From: an uncultured Bacilli bacterium
Lineage (GTDB): Bacteria > Bacillota_I > Bacilli_A > RF39 > UBA660
Assembly (NCBI GenBank): GCA_944350345.1
Contig: CALVOP010000002.1
Location: 577 to 64,576, forward strand
DNA length: 64,000 nucleotides
Direction of reading: 5' to 3'
Positions within the stretch are counted from its first letter, which is position 1, and each line of letters opens with the position of its first letter. The notes under the pieces are model-generated. The model did no database searches, had not been told where the DNA came from, and worked only from the letters and a program-made list of their open reading frames with translations. The translations under genes and the position numbers were made by a program. This document shows, in pieces, positions 1-58,117 of the stretch.

Positions 1-1860
1 GAGGGAGAACAACATGGAATAAGAACAAATAGCACTATAAAAACAGAGGTAGATAATTGGTATGCAAGTAATTTAAATGATTTTGATGGGTACATAAGTA
101 AGACTGCAATATATTGTAATGATAGAACGGTAGCGAGCGGAATCGTGTGGAATGAGTATTCATATGATATGCCTTATACAACATATACAAGATTAAACAT
201 AAATAAAACACCAACGTTTGTATGTAGTAATTTTGGTGATAGATTTACAGCAAGTGCGACAACAGGAAATGGAAAACTAACATATCCAATAGGACTAATC
301 ACAGCAGATGAGATAAGTTATGCAGGAGGATTATATGGAACAAATAATACAAGTTATTATATAGTTCAAAATGCATTAAGTGGATCAGACTACTGGTGGA
401 CAATGAGCCCAGCTCGCAATTATATTCTCTCTGCAGAAATCATGGTGGTTGGTGGAACTACATATACGGGATATCTATCTAGCAATATTGTCAACAGTGC
501 TCGTGGAGTACGCCCTGTAATTTCACTAAAGGCGTGTGTTCTTGCTTCTGGAGGAAGCGGGGCTGCAAGTGATCCGTATACAGTAAGTTTGGCTGAGGGA
601 TGTGCTAATGTAGAAAATGAGATATTAGAAGAAAATACAGTAAGAGTAAGTGCAACAACAAATGATACGAGTATGGCAACAGTAAACGCACCAAGTTCAG
701 TAATAATAAATAGTGGAAGCAGTTACACATTTATATTCACGGTAAATAGTGGATATGGGTATGACAGTGTAAGTGGATGTAATGGAACGTATGATACAAA
801 TACAAATAAATTAACAGTAAGTAATGTAACAGATAACACGACATGTACTGTAAACTTTAAGGCGCTAAATCCATTATATGCCCAAGTGTTAGAGGACAAC
901 CCAAATGTAAGTACAAGGACAGATTTTAGTACAATATTTACGACAAGTAATAATGGGAACACAATATATAAAGCGAGTGGACAAGATGGAAAAGATACAT
1001 ATTATTTTGCAGGGTCAGTAACAAATAACTATGTAAAATTTGCTAATAAGTACTGGAGAATAGTAAGAATAAATGAGGATAATAGTGTACGTTTAATATA
1101 TGCAGGTACAAGTGCAGATGATACAGCAGCATTTATAAGTACATCACAGGCATATAATTCAAGCTATAATAATAGTTCATATGTAGGGTATATGTATACT
1201 TTAAATGAGCAGTTCGGAACAGGGACAAATAGTAGTATAAAAACAGTTGTGGATAACTGGTACACAAGTAATTTAAGTAGTTATTCAGGGTATATAAGTA
1301 AGACTGCGATATACTGTAATGATAGAACGGTGGCAAGTGGATATACATGGAGTGCAACAGGAAGTACTACATTCTACTATGCTGCAAGAGAAAGACTATA
1401 CACAAATAAAGCACCGTCATTTGTATGTAGTAATGCAAATGATAGGTTTACAGCAAGTACGACAACAGGAAACGGAAAACTAACATATCCAATAGGATTA
1501 ATTACAATGGATGAGGTATACTACGCAGGAGGATATACATCAAATAACACAAGTTATTATATAGCCCAGAACGCATCTAGTGGAGCGTCATGGTGGTGGA
1601 CAATGAGTCCGTACAGCTGGGGTAGCTACTTCAGCAACGCTTACATGTTCTACGTGGGCGGGTCTTCTGGCACTGGCTGCTTGAGCAACTACAGCGTCGG
1701 CGGCACGATCGGCGTGCGTCCCGTAATTTCTCTGAAATCTTGTGTCCTTACTTCTGGAGGAAGCGGGACTGCAAGTGATCCTTATACAGTAAGTGTTTCT
1801 AGTGCGTGCTCAAGTGCGGAGAATACAGTTGGCGGTAATGATGTTGTGGTTGTAGGGTAA
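1..1860 (+). CDS. Repeat-containing secreted/surface protein, 5'-partial. The reading frame is open from position 1. It has large tandem modules of about 1.2 kb (about 400 aa) carrying a conserved WWTMSP ... GVRPVISLK ... SGGSG(A/T)ASDPYTVS motif block. This resembles the WLRSP/GVRPA module that is widespread in Firmicutes surface proteins.
   Basis: Frame 1 is open from nt 1, and the ORF-track Met at 145 is internal. Nt 25-120 are about 85-90% identical to nt 1226-1335. The protein shows two diverged copies of the same ~400 aa module. No LPXTG motif is present at the C-terminus. Confidence 0.6.
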   Translation, partial: EGEQHGIRTNSTIKTEVDNWYASNLNDFDGYISKTAIYCNDRTVASGIVWNEYSYDMPYTTYTRLNINKTPTFVCSNFGDRFTASATTGNGKLTYPIGLITADEISYAGGLYGTNNTSYYIVQNALSGSDYWWTMSPARNYILSAEIMVVGGTTYTGYLSSNIVNSARGVRPVISLKACVLASGGSGAASDPYTVSLAEGCANVENEILEENTVRVSATTNDTSMATVNAPSSVIINSGSSYTFIFTVNSGYGYDSVSGCNGTYDTNTNKLTVSNVTDNTTCTVNFKALNPLYAQVLEDNPNVSTRTDFSTIFTTSNNGNTIYKASGQDGKDTYYFAGSVTNNYVKFANKYWRIVRINEDNSVRLIYAGTSADDTAAFISTSQAYNSSYNNSSYVGYMYTLNEQFGTGTNSSIKTVVDNWYTSNLSSYSGYISKTAIYCNDRTVASGYTWSATGSTTFYYAARERLYTNKAPSFVCSNANDRFTASTTTGNGKLTYPIGLITMDEVYYAGGYTSNNTSYYIAQNASSGASWWWTMSPYSWGSYFSNAYMFYVGGSSGTGCLSNYSVGGTIGVRPVISLKSCVLTSGGSGTASDPYTVSVSSACSSAENTVGGNDVVVVG

Positions 1861-23328: not shown

Positions 23329-24273
23329 ATGAGTAAAAAGAAAAAGATTATGTTGATAGTTGTGGTTGTTGTACTTTTGGGAATATTTGCATTAGCTCTT
23401 TATATTAATAGAGAAAAATTGGTAGTTGTTGCTGATGTGACGCATACTACTGAGGACGTTTACTTAGATTATTTGTTTGATGAAGTTAGTGAAGTTGAAG
23501 GGATAGCTGTTGATAATGTAAACTTCGATGGTCTTACTTTTAATGAGAGAATTAATTATGCTATTGATAAAGTAAAAGCAAGTTTGATCGTGGCTTATGC
23601 TTCTAGTAAAGAGATGAAAATGTTTGCAGAAAATTATAAAGATGTTATATTTATAACTTTGGGTGCTACTTATGAAGATGAGTTAGATAATTTAGTTGGT
23701 GTTAAATATGATATGTATAATGCTGGGTATTTACTTGGATATCTTGCAGGAAGTTCTACTTTAACTAATAATTTAGGTATTATTGGAACTGATGAAGAAA
23801 CTAATAGTGAACTTATAAGTGGTTTTAGTGATGGGGCACTTCAAGCTAATGATAGTGTTATTATTACTGTCGATTATATGGGTAAAGAAACTTATAATAA
23901 TGGTTATTATCAAAATAAAAGTGAAGATGTGGAAGATACAGAATTAGCGCGTAGTAAAGCATATTCTATGTATAGTAATGGAATTGATATTATTCTTGAT
24001 TTAGCTAATAATAGTAGTGAGGGAATTATTAAAAGTGCAGAAGAAAATGATAAGTATGTTATAAGTGACTGTATGAATAAATCTGATAATATTCTAGCGT
24101 GTTTTGAAAGAGACATAACGTATGGTTTAAATTTAATTGTGAAAGATTATAATAATAAAAATTTGAAGAATAATTATAACTTTGATATAAATAATGGTGT
24201 GAATATAACGATTAATGATAAAATCAGCGATGAAGTAAAAGATAAGATTCAAGAGTTAGAAAGTGAAATGTAA
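23329..24273 (+). CDS. BMP-family (Med/PnrA-like) membrane-anchored substrate-binding lipoprotein
   Basis: N-terminal TM/signal segment. YDMYNAGYLLGYLAG and ISGFSDGA blocks match the BMP family consensus. Confidence 0.6.
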   Translation: MSKKKKIMLIVVVVVLLGIFALALYINREKLVVVADVTHTTEDVYLDYLFDEVSEVEGIAVDNVNFDGLTFNERINYAIDKVKASLIVAYASSKEMKMFAENYKDVIFITLGATYEDELDNLVGVKYDMYNAGYLLGYLAGSSTLTNNLGIIGTDEETNSELISGFSDGALQANDSVIITVDYMGKETYNNGYYQNKSEDVEDTELARSKAYSMYSNGIDIILDLANNSSEGIIKSAEENDKYVISDCMNKSDNILACFERDITYGLNLIVKDYNNKNLKNNYNFDINNGVNITINDKISDEVKDKIQELESEM

Positions 24274-24429: not shown

Positions 24430-24568
24430 ATTGCTAATAAAAATGATATACTATTTTTTATTATTTGTCAAATTATCTTTGATATTCTTTTAAATGTCAA
24501 ATATGTAAAGAAATATTTGATTATAATTTTTATATTTGGTAAAATTAGATTAAAGATAGGTGGTAGAA

Positions 24569-25231
24569 ATGGGAGAAAAAGATGAATTTTATGAGTTCAT
24601 GAAGAAATTAGCTCGTGAAAAGGAATTAAGACAAAAAGACAGAGAATTTATTGAATCGGCAAGTAGGCCTAAAAAAACAAGACATTTTGATGAACAAGAA
24701 GAAATTGTTAGAAGGAAAAGGAGAGGCAATAAGACATATAAGGTTAAAAGTAAAGCGCTTATGTTCTTATTGGTATTAGGTTTTGTGACTGGTGTTGGAG
24801 CAAAAGCTACTTATGATGCAGTTGCGCCTATTGTAAAGGCATATGTTCAAAATCAAGCAGACAGTATTAGTTTGTCGGGTTGGCAGGAAAATTTTAGTAC
24901 TTCTAAAGCCGGATATTTTTTAGATATGGAAGTTAAAAGAGAACATAATAGTATATTTAATGATGGCCCTGTGCCTTTTGATTATGATGATCCAGAAAAC
25001 CTATCTGTTACAGCAGATGGTGAGAAAGTTGGAGCAATAGTTGACTATTTTGATGCTTTTGATAGATATTTGGAATCTTCTACTGGAACAGGTTATTATG
25101 AAACAAAATATGAACAGATGCAAAGATTGGTTTCTATTGGAAAAGATCCTGATAGTATTGATTGTATTTATTCTTATGATGAATTGAGTGAAATGTTTTC
25201 AAATGATAAAGGTTTGGGTGTTAAACAATGA
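24569..25231 (+). CDS. Hypothetical bitopic membrane protein (basic cytoplasmic N-terminus, one TM, extracellular domain of about 140 aa). The ORF track starts at 24560 with GTG, but ATG 24569 has better RBS spacing.
   Basis: Topology is inferred from a charged N-terminus followed by the hydrophobic stretch ALMFLLVLGFVTGVGA. There is no family match. Confidence 0.45.
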   Translation: MGEKDEFYEFMKKLAREKELRQKDREFIESASRPKKTRHFDEQEEIVRRKRRGNKTYKVKSKALMFLLVLGFVTGVGAKATYDAVAPIVKAYVQNQADSISLSGWQENFSTSKAGYFLDMEVKREHNSIFNDGPVPFDYDDPENLSVTADGEKVGAIVDYFDAFDRYLESSTGTGYYETKYEQMQRLVSIGKDPDSIDCIYSYDELSEMFSNDKGLGVKQ

Positions 25232-25461
25232 AAGAATTTGATGAAATAATTGAATTAGATGGAGAAGATTATTTAGTAGTTGATAGAATTATCTATGAAG
25301 GAAAAAATTATATTTATGTTAATTCTTTAGTTAATGAAGATGATATTTCAATTTTAGAAGAATATGAAAAAGATGGTAAAAAAGTTGTTAAAAGTATACC
25401 TGATGAAAAATATAACTTAATTTTTAATGTTTTTGCTAAAAATATAGTAAGTGATAACTAA
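25228..25461 (+). CDS. Hypothetical small soluble protein, translationally coupled (ATGA overlap)
   Basis: 77 aa ORF with host-like codon usage. Confidence 0.4.
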   Translation: MKEFDEIIELDGEDYLVVDRIIYEGKNYIYVNSLVNEDDISILEEYEKDGKKVVKSIPDEKYNLIFNVFAKNIVSDN

Positions 25462-25515: not shown

Positions 25516-26043
25516 ATGGGTAAGGTTTTTACGACAAAAAAAGGTTTTACTTTAGTAGAAATTATTATAGTTATAGCATTATTAGCGGTTTTAATTGTAA
25601 TTGCCATTCCTAATATTATTAAAGTTTATAACAATGCAAAATTAAATGCATTTTTGGATGAAGCCAAAGCAATTTATAAAAACATTGAAACTAGTTATAA
25701 TAGTGACTTTATGGAAGAGACTATTAAAGTAGATAGATATTGTGATAGTAGTGAAAGTTATATAAGAAAACTAAGATTAAAAAAGCCAGATGATATTTCT
25801 TATGATATAGAATTATCAGATAATGGAATTATCACAAAGTTCTATGTTGTAAATGATTCTTATCAGTTGCTACTTGGTGGTTCAAACGTTAAAATTAGTG
25901 ATATTATAGCTGAAAATGTGCAGGAATTAGAAAATTTTGAATATGATTGCCACGGTGTTTATGGAGTTTATTGTAATATTGAACGGCTTCCGTGTATAGT
26001 TGTGCCTTCATTTAATTATAGTGTGATTGATAGCAATTTATAG
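25516..26043 (+). CDS. Type IV pilin-like / pseudopilin protein (class III prepilin signal, KKG|FTLVE)
   Basis: MGKVFTTKKGFTLVEIIIVIALLAVL has G at -1, F at +1 and E at +5, followed by a hydrophobic helix. The C-terminus has 3 Cys (a D-region-like disulfide). Confidence 0.7.
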   Translation: MGKVFTTKKGFTLVEIIIVIALLAVLIVIAIPNIIKVYNNAKLNAFLDEAKAIYKNIETSYNSDFMEETIKVDRYCDSSESYIRKLRLKKPDDISYDIELSDNGIITKFYVVNDSYQLLLGGSNVKISDIIAENVQELENFEYDCHGVYGVYCNIERLPCIVVPSFNYSVIDSNL

Positions 26044-26054
26044 AAAGGATTTTT

Positions 26055-26456
26055 ATGAAAAAGGGTTTTACTTTGTTGGAATTACTGGCAGTTATAATTT
26101 TAATTGGTTTTTTGTTGACTATAGTTGTGCCTTCTACAATCAAAATTTTGGATAGTAGTATAGTAAATACCATGAAAATTCAAGAAGAAGAAGTTGAAAA
26201 TGCTGCTAAAATTTATTTGGAAGATTATTGTAAAACTCCTATTGATAGTACTAAAATTTGTACTTTAAACAAATCTGTTACTAATGGTATAGTATATTAT
26301 AATGGTGAAGTTAATTTAAATATATTAATTAATAATAATTATATTGAACGAGTATCGATTAGGAATGTAAATTGTGAAGGCCGAGTTATTATTACTAATA
26401 GCGAGCCTAAAGCATATTTGAAATGTGGGGATATATATACTACAGATGGATATTAA
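26055..26456 (+). CDS. Type IV pilin-like / pseudopilin protein (MKKG|FTLLELLAVIILIGF)
   Basis: It has a canonical prepilin peptidase motif and N-terminal helix. The C-terminus has the ...NCEG...KCGDIY Cys pair. Confidence 0.75.
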   Translation: MKKGFTLLELLAVIILIGFLLTIVVPSTIKILDSSIVNTMKIQEEEVENAAKIYLEDYCKTPIDSTKICTLNKSVTNGIVYYNGEVNLNILINNNYIERVSIRNVNCEGRVIITNSEPKAYLKCGDIYTTDGY

Positions 26457-26808
26457 GTATTAAAGCTAATAGTCTAGTTAGTTAAATAGTAAAATTAAAT
26501 TTTATAGTAACTACTGAAATTGCAAGAGAAATTGGAATGTTTTCTCTTGTTTTTGTATGCTTTTTAAAAATAAAATTTTTTGAAAATTTGAAAAACATTT
26601 TTTATTAAATAGTGTATATGGTGTTTACTAATTTAAATTATTGTGTTGTACAACAATAATATTACTTATTTTATATCAATATTTTTTGTTATATAAAAAG
26701 TATATATTTATTATTGTATTTAATTTTTTTTAGTTAACATGTTATTTATATTTTATTGATTATGACTTATATTTTTGATATAATTTTAATGTTAATGGAG
26801 GCGTGGTT

Positions 26809-27261
26809 ATGAATAAACATGGTTGGGGATTAGCTAGTGAACTTTTATTTATTTTAATTTTTGTTATTTGTTTGATTATTGCTGTGCTTGGACTTAGACA
26901 GTTATCTTTGCTAGAGGAATTTAATCCTAATTACCATAGTAATACTGATACTAATAATGATGCCATTCAAAAAGAGTTTAATTATCAAGAACTTGAAGTT
27001 AGACTAAAAAATAGTACTATAGATTATGTTAAAGATGTTTATAATAATGAACTTGGTTTAGATACTTTGATTATTAAGGCTTCGTTATTACGTGAAAAAG
27101 GGTACTTGAATAATTATAGTGATGAAGATGATAAATATTGTTCTGGTTATTGCGAAGTTTATTTAAATGAAAATGAAGAAATTATTTATGAACCATATGT
27201 TAAATGTGGAGACTTTTATGAAAGTAAAGGTTATGTGGAGAGAAAGGATACCAATGAATAA
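26809..27261 (+). CDS. Pilin-like / minor-pilin-like membrane protein (non-canonical leader MNKHGWGLASELLF)
   Basis: It has an N-terminal hydrophobic helix and a C-terminal CSGYC...KCGDFY block shared with the neighbouring pilin-like ORFs. The start is ATG 26809 after GGAGG (the ORF-track GTG at 26803 lies inside the RBS). Confidence 0.5.
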   Translation: MNKHGWGLASELLFILIFVICLIIAVLGLRQLSLLEEFNPNYHSNTDTNNDAIQKEFNYQELEVRLKNSTIDYVKDVYNNELGLDTLIIKASLLREKGYLNNYSDEDDKYCSGYCEVYLNENEEIIYEPYVKCGDFYESKGYVERKDTNE

Positions 27262-27574
27262 TAAAATAATTGTTTTATGGGGATTTATTATTTTTGGCTT
27301 AGTTATAAGTATTTATATTCTTGGCATTAGCAAAAGTGATGAAGTTAAATACGACGAAATAAAGGATAATTTAAAATTGTCCGTTAATAATTATTTGGCT
27401 GACAATGATCTTTGGCCAGTCAATTCGGTTACTGTTTCTAGTGAAGAATTAATTGAAAACAATTATATGAACGAATTGTCTTATGAAAATAGTAAATGTT
27501 TTGCTGATGTAATCGTTACTAATACTGGCAAAAAATATAACTATGAATATGATATTACTTGTGTTTATGAATAA
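27254..27574 (+). CDS. Pilin-like / minor-pilin-like membrane protein. The start is ATG 27254 (RBS GGAGAGAAAGG), overlapping the previous gene's stop.
   Basis: MNNKIIVLWGFIIFGLVISIYILGI has one N-terminal TM helix. A C-terminal Cys pair (KCF...TCVYE) parallels the neighbours. The ORF-track start at 27167 lies inside the upstream gene. Confidence 0.45.
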   Translation: MNNKIIVLWGFIIFGLVISIYILGISKSDEVKYDEIKDNLKLSVNNYLADNDLWPVNSVTVSSEELIENNYMNELSYENSKCFADVIVTNTGKKYNYEYDITCVYE

Positions 27575-27639
27575 ATTATACTTTTAAAGTATGATTTTTT
27601 TTGTTATAATGATTGTTAGAGAATAAAGGTAGGAATATT

Positions 27640-28872
27640 ATGAAACAAATAGTTACTAGTTTAGATGTTGGTAGTGATAAAATTAAACTCGTTGTTAGTG
27701 AAGTACATAATAATAATTTTTTTGTTTTGGCTTGTTCTGAAGTTAGTAGTAAAGGCATAAAGAAAGGATTTGTTGTTGATCCGGAAACTGCCATTGAAAG
27801 TGTTAAAGAGTGTTTTAAAAGGGTAAATGAAGTATTAGGTATAAAAATCGATAACGTTATTCTTACAATTCCTTCTGATGAAAGTGAATTTATTAAAAGC
27901 GATGGATATACTACAATAAATAGGGAAGAAAATATTGTTAGTGGAGATGATATTGTACGTGCGTTACAGGCTTGTGTTTATAATAAAGTTCCCGTAAATA
28001 AGGAACTTGTTAATATTATGCCTTTGAATTATATTCTTGATGAAGATACTGTTGTGGATGATCCTAAGGGTGAACATGCAAATAAGTTAACTGTGAACTC
28101 GGTGCTAGGGGTTGTACCTAAGAAAAATGTTTATGGAATATTTGCATTACTCAATACCATTGGAATCAAAGTAACTGATGTATGTTTCGGTGGAATTGCT
28201 GATTATTACGAATTTAGGCGAAAAGGTATGATGGATAGTGAGGTTGCTGTTATAAATATTGGTAAAGATAAAACTGAAATTAGTATATTAAGTAAAAATG
28301 TTTTAGTAGGAAATGATGTCTTAAATATTGGGGGAAGAAATATTGACCGAGATATATCATATGTTTATGATTTAAGTTTAAAAGAATCTGTTAAACTTAA
28401 AGAAAAATTTGCTTTGGCACATAAGAAGCATGCTAGTACTAGTGAAACTTATGAATGCTTGACAAAAAATAATGAAACAATTAAAATAAATCAGTATGAG
28501 ATAAGTGAAATTGTATACGAAAGAGTCAAAGAAATTCTTGAACTTTCAAAAAAACAAATTAATATCTTAACAAAAAAGGAAATTAGTTATATAATTATTA
28601 CAGGGGGTAGTACAGAGATAGAAGACTTTAATGAAGTTGTTGATGAAGTGATTGGTAAAAAATCAGTTCTTGGTAATATTACTGAGCTGGGTGTTAGAAA
28701 TAATAAATTTAGTAGTGTACTTGGTATTACGAAGTATTATTCAGAAAAGATTAATTTTAGGAATAGAATAGCAAGTACTATAAGCGAAGAAGAACAAGAA
28801 GAAATGTTTCAAGTTAAGAAAAAATATGGAAATATATTGGGCAAAGTTTATGGATACTTTTTTGATAATTAA
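27640..28872 (+). CDS. ftsA: Cell division protein FtsA (the start is ATG 27640 after AAAGGTAGG; the ORF-track start at 27613 is upstream)
   Basis: The actin-fold N-terminus VTSLDVGSDKIKLVVSEV is typical of FtsA, and it lies immediately upstream of ftsZ. Confidence 0.85.
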   Translation: MKQIVTSLDVGSDKIKLVVSEVHNNNFFVLACSEVSSKGIKKGFVVDPETAIESVKECFKRVNEVLGIKIDNVILTIPSDESEFIKSDGYTTINREENIVSGDDIVRALQACVYNKVPVNKELVNIMPLNYILDEDTVVDDPKGEHANKLTVNSVLGVVPKKNVYGIFALLNTIGIKVTDVCFGGIADYYEFRRKGMMDSEVAVINIGKDKTEISILSKNVLVGNDVLNIGGRNIDRDISYVYDLSLKESVKLKEKFALAHKKHASTSETYECLTKNNETIKINQYEISEIVYERVKEILELSKKQINILTKKEISYIIITGGSTEIEDFNEVVDEVIGKKSVLGNITELGVRNNKFSSVLGITKYYSEKINFRNRIASTISEEEQEEMFQVKKKYGNILGKVYGYFFDN

Positions 28873-28884
28873 GGAGTGAATTAT

Positions 28885-29940
28885 ATGCAAGGTACATCGT
28901 TAGAAATGGATCAAATAGCTAAAATAAAGGTAATTGGTATTGGTGGTGGAGGATGCAATGCTGTTAACCGAATGATAGATTCTGGACTTAAAGGCGTTGA
29001 ATTTATTGTTGCAAATACTGATTTACAGGTTTTAAATTCTTCTAAGGCTGAACATAAGTTACAGATAGGTGCAACTATTACTGATGGTTTAGGTGCAGGT
29101 GCTGACCCAGAGGTTGGTAGAGAAGCTGCTCTTGAAAGTAGAAGTGAAATTGAAGATGCTTTAAGAGGAGCAGATATGGTTTTTGTAACCTGTGGTCTTG
29201 GTGGAGGAACTGGAACGGGCGCTGCTCCGGTTATTGCTGAAATAGCTCAAAGCTTGGGTTGTTTGACTGTAGCTATAGTTACTAAACCATTTAAGTTTGA
29301 AGGTAAAAAGAGAATGGATCATGCTTTGTTAGGTCTTGATGAGTTAAAGAAGCATGTTGATACAATAGTTGTTATACCAAATGATAGATTAAGGGATTTA
29401 ATTGATAAGTCAACTCCAATGCGTGATGCGTTTAGAGAAGTAGATAATGTTTTAAGATTGGGTGTTCAATCTATATCTGATTTGATAAGCGTTCCTGGTC
29501 TTGTTAATTTGGACTTTGCTGATGTTAAGGCAATTATGGAAAATAGGGGAACTGCTTTGATAGGTATTGGTGTTGGTTTTGGTGAAAATCGTGCGATTGA
29601 AGCAGCTAAACAAGCTATTTCAAGTCCATTACTAGAAACAACTATTAATGGTGCTACTGATTGTATTATAAATATTACAGGTGGAAGTAGTTTGACTTTG
29701 TTTGAAGCAGAAGATGCAGCTGAAGTTATTCGTGCAGCAGCTAATACTGATGTTAATATTATATTTGGTGCTGTGATTAATGAAGCTTTAAGTGAAGAAG
29801 TAATTGTTACTGTAATTGCAACTGGATTTGAGGATGAAAGTGAACCTTTATATCAAAGTTATAGTAGTGATTCTAGTTTATCTATGGATGATACAGATAT
29901 AGATGATTTACCTCCATTTTTGAGAGATAGAGATATTTAA
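28885..29940 (+). CDS. ftsZ: Cell division GTPase FtsZ (the start is ATG 28885, 6 nt after AAGGAGTGA)
   Basis: [35 protein letters not shown] (the tubulin signature) and a C-terminal DIPPFLR peptide are present. Confidence 0.95.
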
Positions 29941-56789: not shown

Positions 56790-57263
56790 ATGGAAAATAT
56801 TATAAGAAATGATAGGTATATATTAGATAAAAAAATATTAATTTTTAAAGAAAAGTATATGAAATTTAAAAAACTTAATATTGTTGATGAAATATCTTTG
56901 AGAGAGTGTATATGTGATGTTTTATCTTGGATAGAAATGTGTGTTAAAACTACAAAAGATATGAGTGTAGAAGAAAAAAGGAAAATTAGTGCAATTAGAT
57001 ATGCGAATAATTATAAAAAACACGGTATTAAATTATATAATTTTAATAAAAATGTGTATGGATTATATCCATCAGAAAAATTAGTCCCAAGACCAAATTT
57101 GTGTCCTTCTGATTTTAATATATATTGGAATTTTCTATCTTTTTTAAAAAAATCTGAAAAAACACAATATAATAATTATAGAACTTTTTTAGAAAATAAA
57201 AATATATATGATACAATAATTGACATTTATGAAATTATACAAAAATATTATAAACTAACTTAA
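56790..57263 (+). CDS. Hypothetical protein (157 aa), followed by a terminator at 57269-57290
   Basis: ORF with no known domain. A terminator hairpin AGGAGCAATGCTCCT followed by T7 comes immediately after. Confidence 0.4.
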   Translation: MENIIRNDRYILDKKILIFKEKYMKFKKLNIVDEISLRECICDVLSWIEMCVKTTKDMSVEEKRKISAIRYANNYKKHGIKLYNFNKNVYGLYPSEKLVPRPNLCPSDFNIYWNFLSFLKKSEKTQYNNYRTFLENKNIYDTIIDIYEIIQKYYKLT

Positions 57264-57571
57264 TGTAGGAGCAATGCTCCTTTTTTTGATGAGTAAATAT
57301 CTTTTTTTACTAAACCCAACCCCCAAACTTAATAAAATTGATTTTAAAGGTAGTTCCTGTTAGATTTGATTTGATTAATATATTTATATTAATTCATTAT
57401 AAACTTAACAGAAAACAACCTTAATTTGCTTTAAAATGGGTTGTTTATAATTGAATTATAATTGATAAAATTATTGGCTTTTACTATATAGCACTATTTA
57501 TATAATATATTGCTATTATTTGATTATTTCCTTTATTGCTCTACTAAATAGATAAGGAGAGTGATAAAGAT

Positions 57572-57745
57572 ATGGAATATTATTTCACAACAAAAGAAAT
57601 AAGTTTGTTATTAAAAACGCCAATTCAATTCATTAGAAAAATGATAAGAGAAAAAAGAATTATTGCTTATAAGGTAGGAAGACAATATATTGTTAAGGAA
57701 CAAGATTTAAATAATTATCTTGATAGTGTGAAATATGAAAGATAA
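57572..57745 (+). CDS. Excisionase/HTH_17-type small DNA-binding protein (57 aa): MEYYFTTKEISLLLKTPIQFIRKMIREKRIIAYKVGRQYIVKEQDLNNYLDSVKYER
   Basis: AAGGAGAGTGA RBS. It matches the Xis/HTH_17 winged-helix pattern (T.KE.a.lL.v....i.r.i..g.i.a.kvGr.w.i...dL..yl). It is not in the ORF track and overlaps the next gene by 11 nt. Confidence 0.6.
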   Translation: MEYYFTTKEISLLLKTPIQFIRKMIREKRIIAYKVGRQYIVKEQDLNNYLDSVKYER

Positions 57746-58076
57746 AGATATTTTAAAAATGTTAGGTTTAAATGATAGAACTATTACTTTAACTGCTGAT
57801 GATGAATATTTACAAATAATGCTTGAAAAGAAAATAGATAACTACTTTAAAAAATTAGATGAAGAAAAAAAGAAACAAGAACAAATAGATTATTATAAAA
57901 ATCAATATGAAAAGTTCCAAAAGAAAAATGAGTTTGTTAAAAACTTTGATGATAAGTTTGTTTATGGTAAGTTAAGAGATAAACTTATTAAAGACGGTTT
58001 TGTATATCGTTGTCCTTTTTGTCTTGATGTATCAAGTCAATATGGAAGACCATTACAAAGTTATAACAAACATTAG
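57735..58076 (+). CDS. Hypothetical protein (113 aa) with a C-terminal CPFC motif, overlapping the Xis-like gene
   Basis: ORF in apparent operon with the HTH_17 gene, with a terminator at 58079-58112. Confidence 0.4.
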   Translation: MKDKDILKMLGLNDRTITLTADDEYLQIMLEKKIDNYFKKLDEEKKKQEQIDYYKNQYEKFQKKNEFVKNFDDKFVYGKLRDKLIKDGFVYRCPFCLDVSSQYGRPLQSYNKH

Positions 58077-58117
58077 AAAAGAGAATTAAGTTTAAAATGC
58101 TTAATTCTCTTATTTTT

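Follow-up and report, generated by a model that had tools for sequence, protein, structure and literature searches.

Two small genes lying directly 5' of ftsA-ftsZ in a 64,000-nucleotide stretch of DNA from an uncultured Bacilli bacterium (hereafter the window; contig CALVOP010000002.1, positions 577 to 64,576 of the forward strand) encode, as judged from sequence homology, a divergent and widely distributed pair of pilin-derived proteins of uncultured gut and rumen low-GC Bacilli that is new to annotation. These genes, here termed C and D, follow two type IV prepilin genes, A and B. The original prediction had treated the four as one cluster; the analysis instead identified two independent bicistronic units, which stand side by side only in this strain through a strain-specific rearrangement. 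We give about an even chance to the reading that C and D are a minor-pilin- or pseudopilin-like pair needing a distal prepilin peptidase or pilus machine, with their adjacency to ftsA being a lineage-specific accident of gene order.

Two separate units upstream of ftsA

The observation of a four-gene pilin-like cluster beside ftsA is confirmed in part. All four small genes are present on the + strand directly 5' of ftsA-ftsZ, and their products have hydrophobic N-terminal helices. Gene A occupies positions 25516-26043 (175 amino acids, aa) and gene B positions 26055-26456 (133 aa); the unit ends in an intrinsic terminator-like hairpin with a U-run at 26522-26556 (10-bp stem hairpin at 26522-26550; −13.3 kcal/mol, z = −2.7). 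Gene C occupies 26809-27261 (150 aa) and gene D 27254-27574 (106 aa). The terminator and a 346-bp AT-rich spacer keep A-B apart from C-D, and a promoter scan placed a promoter for C-D at 26756-26784 (TTGATT, 17 nt, extended −10 TGATATAAT). This promoter is conserved in the related loci L003, L007, L009 and L011 and partly in L001, and the sequence 5' of it is unrelated.

The start codons of C (ATG 26809) and D were both set by homologues. A start for D had been proposed at 27167, but this lies in an upstream extension of the open reading frame (ORF), and the D homologues all begin with MNNK, corresponding to the ATG at 27254. The D start overlaps the C stop by 8 nt, and the conservation of this overlap among homologues argues for stoichiometric co-production of the two proteins.

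The relatives analysed are titled 'uncultured Bacilli bacterium' at NCBI and have FtsA proteins 80-88% identical to that of the window. In these genomes A-B and C-D are on different contigs. The A-B pair is found in the order parE-parC-ylbD-ylbE-hemW-bmp-223aa-DUF1292-A-B, with a 140-aa gene or a UPF0236 transposase 3' of B, while C-D-ftsA-ftsZ is preceded by topA-DUF6273, topA-rpsP-KH, insertion sequence (IS) fragments, an amidase gene or other genes.

In the window, the B-C junction probably exists as assembled. B and positions 26457-26663 are matched almost exactly by L030, a metagenome contig from an independent assembly, and homology to the upstream regions of other C genes starts at 26691, so that approximately 27 nt of the junction remain unconfirmed. 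A self-BLAST of the B-C spacer identified no repeat and no mobile-element end. Spacer positions 26475-26529 match L017:1-55, a contig end 5' of a DUF5684 gene, over 55 nt with 84% identity and in reverse orientation; this match is possibly left over from the rearrangement by which B came to adjoin C-D.

Homology and predicted fold of B, C and D

A and B are genuine type IV prepilins. As originally proposed, both carry a class III prepilin signal (a slash marks the cleavage position), and both exceed the cutoffs of the PF07963 N_methyl (21.2 bits) and TIGR02532 (16.3 bits) models: A (MGKVFTTKKG/FTLVE) scored 27.5 and 29.1 bits, and B (MKKG/FTLLE) 23.0 and 26.2 bits, respectively. A regular-expression scan found the canonical K-G-F-T-L-x-E motif in the window in A and B only.

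C and D returned nothing from Pfam and NCBIfam, even at E ≤ 1, and had no match to the ComG equivalog models of NCBIfam. Pairwise BLASTP nevertheless related B to D (E 3e-6) and B to C (E 1e-4). Alignment of the narrow family profiles with hhalign gave homology probabilities of 90-96% for B, C and D. With broad alignments, C matched B with a probability of 98.2% (E 3e-14, 121 columns), the KnGWGL of C falling on the KKG/FTL of B, and C matched D with 98.4% (E 5e-15). By these comparisons, the homology among B, C and D extends along the whole length of the proteins and takes in a shared globular module.

The C-terminal Cys pair of this module is invariant across the three families (B 107/124, C 111/133, D 82/103) and may form a disulfide. 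A related Cys-containing module had been reported to end all four proteins. This holds for B, C and D. It does not extend to A, as the likeness of A to B is limited to the N-terminal 74 residues and the Cys-rich tail of A is absent from the 146-aa homologue of L017.

At the N-terminus, a class III signal is present in A and B, present in degenerate form in C (MNKHG/WGLASE), and absent from D. Across 22 diverse C proteins, the invariant positions are N2, K3, G5, W6, G7, both Cys residues and a C-terminal Y-x-T-x-G-Y, and the conserved N-terminus reads NKxGWGL..E. The invariant Gly5 aligns with G-1 of B. The membrane Glu lies at +6 from Gly5 in most C proteins and at +5 in some (L035, L084, L090, L093, L094). 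The ectodomains of both C and D are acidic. The most divergent loci encode, directly 5' of C-D, a third small protein, which is bitopic, contains Cys, is 89-92 aa long and has no Pfam match (L084:3678-3944, with equivalents in L090, L093 and L094). The D proteins of these four loci also carry a C-like ending, C.GY...Y.T.GY.

The AlphaFold2 models of C and D have good confidence in their globular parts. The model of C (mean predicted local distance difference test, pLDDT, of 75.5) shows helices at residues 8-35 and 59-78 with a low-confidence linker between them, and 10-residue blocks of the globular part average 82-94. The model of D (mean pLDDT 81) has one helix at residues 3-51, followed by a strand, a short helix and a beta-hairpin. 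The N-terminal hydrophobic alpha1-helix of type IV pilins is thus seen in the models of C and D, and in B by sequence. A Foldseek search of the D model against the PDB returned nothing below E 0.1. Among PDB sequences, the matches to the C profile were limited to PsbH transmembrane helices and a designed coiled coil, regarded as noise, and the B profile matched only the N-terminal helix of solved pilins. The fold searches are weakly consistent with the minimal pilin fold proposed for C and D, and the pilin-likeness of these two proteins derives mainly from their homology to B. All four proteins are accordingly pilin-like, as first proposed, A and B through family models and C and D through their relationship to B.

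Distribution and genomic contexts of C and D

Single-sequence and word-indexed searches gave C and D as narrow families of 12 and 17 clusters. This view was misleading, because a metagenome scan with degenerate patterns found 64 further, far more divergent C-D loci in gut and rumen metagenomes. The C proteins of these loci are 26-67% identical, with a D-like gene directly downstream in 48/64. In the main arrangement, rnj on the opposite strand is followed by ftsY-ylxM-C-D-SPFH-dacA; YlxM is encoded 5' of C-D in 39/64 loci, FtsY in 35/64, and an SPFH protein downstream in 36/64. A second arrangement is topA-C-D, with TopA near C-D in 14/64. None of these 64 more distant loci has ftsA or ftsZ beside C-D.

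By exact-sequence look-up, C-D proteins are encoded on contigs of up to 1.33 Mb in Clostridium sp. CAG:524 and CAG:1000, where they are annotated as 'unknown' or 'hypothetical'. We take both to belong to order RF39 in GTDB. One protein cluster of the family occurs on more than 1000 contigs. D is absent from the CAG:1000-like group (L049-L053), and the pair is therefore not universally required. A family whose members are annotated as nothing more than hypothetical or unknown, and which no Pfam or NCBIfam model detects, is now recognised as pilin-derived.

The A-B prepilins and their hypervariable cassette

A-B are ordinary orphan prepilin genes within a variable surface-protein cassette. A is 50-74% identical in relatives, is 146 or 174 aa long, and is absent from L014. 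In the B family G-1, F+1 and E+5 are invariant, from which we infer a functional prepilin peptidase in the lineage. Scores against the NCBIfam equivalogs ComGC, ComGD, ComGE and ComGF were 17-32 bits for A and B, under cutoffs of 49-80 bits, and those against GspG (TIGR01710, cutoff 88.85 bits) were 41.0 bits for B and 25.5 bits for A.

The B profile, searched against 1.84 billion representatives, matched 228 proteins at E ≤ 1e-10. The 150 listed all have E ≤ 1.3e-17, most being matched near full length, and those inspected retain both Cys pairs (59/69 and 107/124 in B). Several representatives are proteins of 286-1461 aa that start with a B-type module. These matches place B in a broad two-disulfide type IV pilin family that includes modular pilins. 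The large proteins opening with a B-type module (P0066, P0068, P0072, P0077, P0085 and others) look like modular pilins or adhesins; P0068 bears many 'FDTSxVTxM' repeats. One distant B homologue is likewise an orphan, its gene lying between rpmF and lgt.

The cassette begins 3' of bmp (23329-24273) and opens with a gene for a 223-aa bitopic protein with a basic tail, one transmembrane segment and an ectodomain (24560-25231, + strand). It is translationally coupled to a gene for a 77-aa DUF1292-like protein (25228-25461, + strand; PF06949 23.4 bits, cutoff 24), and both precede A-B in relatives. Everything between bmp and ftsA, namely these two genes, A, B, the spacer, C and D, is on the + strand. 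Between the window and L017 copies of the cassette, aa identity over the genes running from the 223-aa gene to B is 41-65% (58% for the DUF1292-like protein), whereas ParE, ParC, YlbD, YlbE and HemW just upstream are 96-99% identical, which identifies the cassette as hypervariable and of the surface-protein type. The pattern points to alleles being swapped or to surface proteins being under diversifying selection. In different strains, both pilin units have large surface proteins of the DUF6273 or repeat type as neighbours (window 145-1860; L003:5870-9850; L014:11333-15782).

The position upstream of ftsA

C-D-ftsA-ftsZ (ftsA 27640-28872 and ftsZ 28876-29940, spanning 27640-29940 on the + strand) is present in every examined genome of the window's narrow clade, across at least five different upstream contexts. 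The ftsA and ftsZ genes of the relatives encode SHS2_FTSA/FtsA and Tubulin/FtsZ_C domains. The D-ftsA spacer is 65 bp long, with a mean nucleotide identity of 90% across seven genomes including L001. Its identity remains approximately 90% with a relative in which identity of the flanking proteins is down to 41-70%. Positions 27573-27610 (+ strand) hold an AT-rich hairpin or palindrome (−6.9 kcal/mol), a T8 run and an extended −10 promoter-like site for ftsA (TTTAAA, 16 nt, TATAAT, with the TG of TGnTATAAT), which begins approximately 10 nt after the D stop. The hairpin is AAATTATACTT-TTA-AAGTATGATTT, and L003 has a compensatory U-A to A-U change. This element, which overlaps the ftsA promoter, might terminate transcription weakly, act as an operator, or do both.

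As ftsA has its own promoter right after the D stop, breakpoints there would be counter-selected whatever C-D does. A breakpoint at this point would be lethal, and the adjacency may thus persist without a functional link, the position of C-D being preserved because the D stop codon abuts the promoter of an essential gene. The suggestion of a division-associated cluster was drawn from the adjacency itself and is not borne out by the 64 distant loci, which hold C-D elsewhere. Searches of the literature that paired pilin-like proteins with ftsA or the divisome found no report. The result warns against inferring function from an ftsA adjacency that is confined to one clade.

The original prediction had further noted that the place normally held by divIB upstream of ftsA was taken by these genes, and had considered the 223-aa protein DivIB-like. 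The slot is indeed vacated in the window's clade. Relatives with FtsA 42-50% identical keep murG-divIB-ftsA, without C-D there, and true divIB genes lie 5' of ftsA in L010, L012 and L013; the window's clade has therefore lost divIB from the slot that C-D now holds. The Pfam scan found no murG or divIB among the window ORFs of at least 90 aa that it covered. The bitopic topology of the 223-aa protein is real, but it is no stand-in for DivIB: neither it nor C or D has a Pfam or NCBIfam match at E ≤ 1, or a POTRA or FtsQ/DivIB domain. It is 36-65% identical among strains with ParC 81-99% identical, and 41% identical to the L017 copy at a ParC identity of 99%, which is unlike a core divisome protein. 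L010 (CAZSRL010000029.1) is titled 'uncultured Muribaculaceae bacterium' and has a low-GC Firmicute-type murG-divIB-ftsA locus with FtsA 50% identical to that of the window; it is probably a mis-binned contig.

Proposed role of C and D and alternative explanations

The preferred reading, to which we assigned about an even chance, has A-B and C-D as independent two-gene units joined by a strain-specific rearrangement. C and D would sit in the membrane, N-terminus inside and C-terminus outside, exposing a small acidic alpha/beta ectodomain with the conserved Cys pair. C would retain a recognisable, non-canonical class III-like N-terminus and would probably be cut after Gly5 by a prepilin peptidase encoded elsewhere, on which A and B would also rely. 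D, with the motif lost, would be held by its N-terminal helix. Working for a distal type IV filament machine, C and D would form a 1:1 complex with the role of a minor-pilin- or pseudopilin-like module. Were C a prepilin peptidase substrate, the class III signal would occupy a wider sequence space than thought, one missed by motif-based pilin finders. Were it not, C would be a case of a pilin fold acting outside a filament.

Several findings weigh against this reading. The window had been described as free of pilus assembly genes, and the Pfam scan bears this out: T2SSE, T2SSF, Peptidase_A24 and the PilMNO families are absent from the scanned ORFs, and with them any prepilin peptidase, PilB/ComGA or PilC/ComGB. 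Likewise, neither a PilB Walker-A nor a PilD GxGDxK motif turned up when 655 kb of related loci were put through a crude motif scan. Any pilus role would therefore need distal machinery, which is assumed here, the searches having covered the window ORFs and these related loci. C departs from the canonical motif, with W at +1, G at +2 and, in this genome, Glu at +6, and D has a conserved MxK..I.IWG start and no Gly/Glu signal. Furthermore, C is about as conserved as FtsA (84% identity for both, compared with 65% for B), and C-D lie among housekeeping genes in lineages whose longest contigs reach approximately 1.3 Mb. These last two points favour an accessory pilus role no more than a constitutive role in the envelope.

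Such a role is the substance of the alternative that C-D are a housekeeping pair independent of any pilus, a pilin fold exapted as permanently membrane-anchored envelope proteins that are never polymerised and perhaps not cleaved, with NKxGWG serving some other interaction at the membrane face. We regard this as a credible possibility, though well short of an even chance. Its appeal lies in the neighbours of C-D (ftsY-ylxM, SPFH, dacA, topA, rpsP or ftsAZ, and never pilus genes), in the retention of the pair in lineages with those long contigs and of one cluster on more than 1000 contigs, in the FtsA-like conservation of C beside the fast-evolving true pilins A and B, in the lack of any prepilin signal in D, and in acidic ectodomains that do not suggest DNA binding. 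However, the invariant Gly of C aligned to G-1 of B and the Glu at +5/+6 are hallmarks of a prepilin peptidase substrate, D is missing from the CAG:1000-like group, and nothing positive points to any specific envelope function. An extension of the same idea has C-D (signature NKxGWGL..E) as a housekeeping pilin-fold pair in the envelope of small-genome gut Bacilli without a pilus machine, recruited to ftsAZ in the place of DivIB in the window's clade, an exaptation for envelope biogenesis or division; this we consider rather doubtful. That C-D are a divisome component replacing DivIB 5' of ftsA in the window's clade and co-expressed with ftsAZ is unlikely. The order C-D-ftsA-ftsZ is invariant in the clade despite its varied upstream contexts, distant relatives have murG-divIB-ftsA and no C-D at the slot, murG and divIB are missing from the window, and only the AT hairpin of −6.9 kcal/mol, rather than a strong terminator, separates D from ftsA. 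On the other hand, C-D never adjoin ftsA or ftsZ in the 64 more distant loci, ftsA has a highly conserved promoter of its own just past the D stop, and the POTRA and coiled-coil features seen in DivIB, FtsL and DivIC are lacking from C and D.

The two other explanations concern the arrangement rather than the role. The B-C junction might be a chimeric assembly join, in which case the four-gene cluster would exist in no cell. The junction does lie in unique AT-rich DNA (26457-26690), L017 has a different gene after B at a ParC identity of 99%, and in other strains both units have IS or transposase genes beside them, but a real IS-mediated rearrangement accounts for the same facts and L030 reproduces all but approximately 27 nt before 26691, making a chimera very unlikely. 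The reading first proposed, of one four-gene minor-pilin or competence operon, draws on four adjacent pilin-like genes on the same strand and on the weak, sub-threshold NCBIfam matches of A and B to ComGC, ComGD, ComGE, ComGF and GspG. It is contradicted by synteny, the pairs being unlinked in all relatives; B and C are separated by a terminator, the 346-bp spacer and a separate promoter, the ComG equivalog scores are far under their cutoffs, and no comGA or comGB lies nearby. We consider a single operon highly improbable.

Comparison with known systems

A and B share with type IV pilins (PF07963) the canonical leader, G-1, F+1, E+5 and the hydrophobic alpha1 helix, and B, C and D resemble them in having a long N-terminal helix ahead of a small beta-sheet domain that bears a C-terminal Cys pair. 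Unlike type IV pilins, C fails all pilin models and D has no cleavage motif; the globular module of B, C and D belongs to no Pfam or NCBIfam family, and assembly genes are absent in cis. GspI (EpsI, XcpV) is a minor pseudopilin of type II secretion that forms the pseudopilus tip with GspJ and GspK. It has a similar minimal size to C and D (one helix and a three-stranded sheet) and belongs to a hetero-oligomer, an arrangement that translational coupling also suggests for C-D; GspI, however, is a canonical prepilin in a Gram-negative type II secretion operon, whereas C-D are in Gram-positive housekeeping contexts. Streptococcus sanguinis PilB and PilC are reportedly modular type IV pilins, with a pilin module fused to large C-terminal domains (compare PDB 7b7p). 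The B-type modules in proteins of 286-1461 aa resemble this arrangement, while A, B, C and D of the window all stand alone.

With DivIB/FtsQ, the 223-aa protein, C and D share a bitopic topology, and C-D the slot 5' of ftsA; they differ in lacking a POTRA/FtsQ domain, in the hypervariability of the 223-aa protein and in the pilin fold predicted for C and D. The minor pilins ComGD, ComGE, ComGF and ComGG of the monoderm Com pilus form complexes, depend on ComC, and in some cases have non-canonical N-termini (PMC8727766, PMC12153270). Like A-D, they are small pilin-like proteins of Bacilli. They are encoded in the comGA-GG operon, whereas A-B and C-D are outside such an operon; A and B score under the cutoffs of the NCBIfam equivalog models, C and D have no match to them, and the C-D ectodomains are acidic. 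The TANB77 pilin cluster is of the Tad/CpaF type in Clostridia and is unrelated to A-D (PMC11680825).

Other features of the window

The window has a G+C content of approximately 27% and encodes SpoIVA, FemAB, MurT/GatD, a PASTA kinase, EzrA and FtsK; its host is a walled, spore-forming low-GC Firmicute. At 50675-51295 on the − strand, 23 kb from the pilin genes, lies a gene for a membrane-anchored protein with a thioredoxin-like CGWC motif and a sub-threshold Redoxin match (E 0.049). The protein is a candidate extracytoplasmic thiol-disulfide oxidoreductase that nothing ties to the pilin genes, although it could possibly oxidise these pilins. A large serine recombinase gene (51641-53191) stands beside an AT-rich stretch (20% G+C, 54-58 kb) of ORFs without a Pfam match, and the region 51641-58100 is probably an integrated mobile element.

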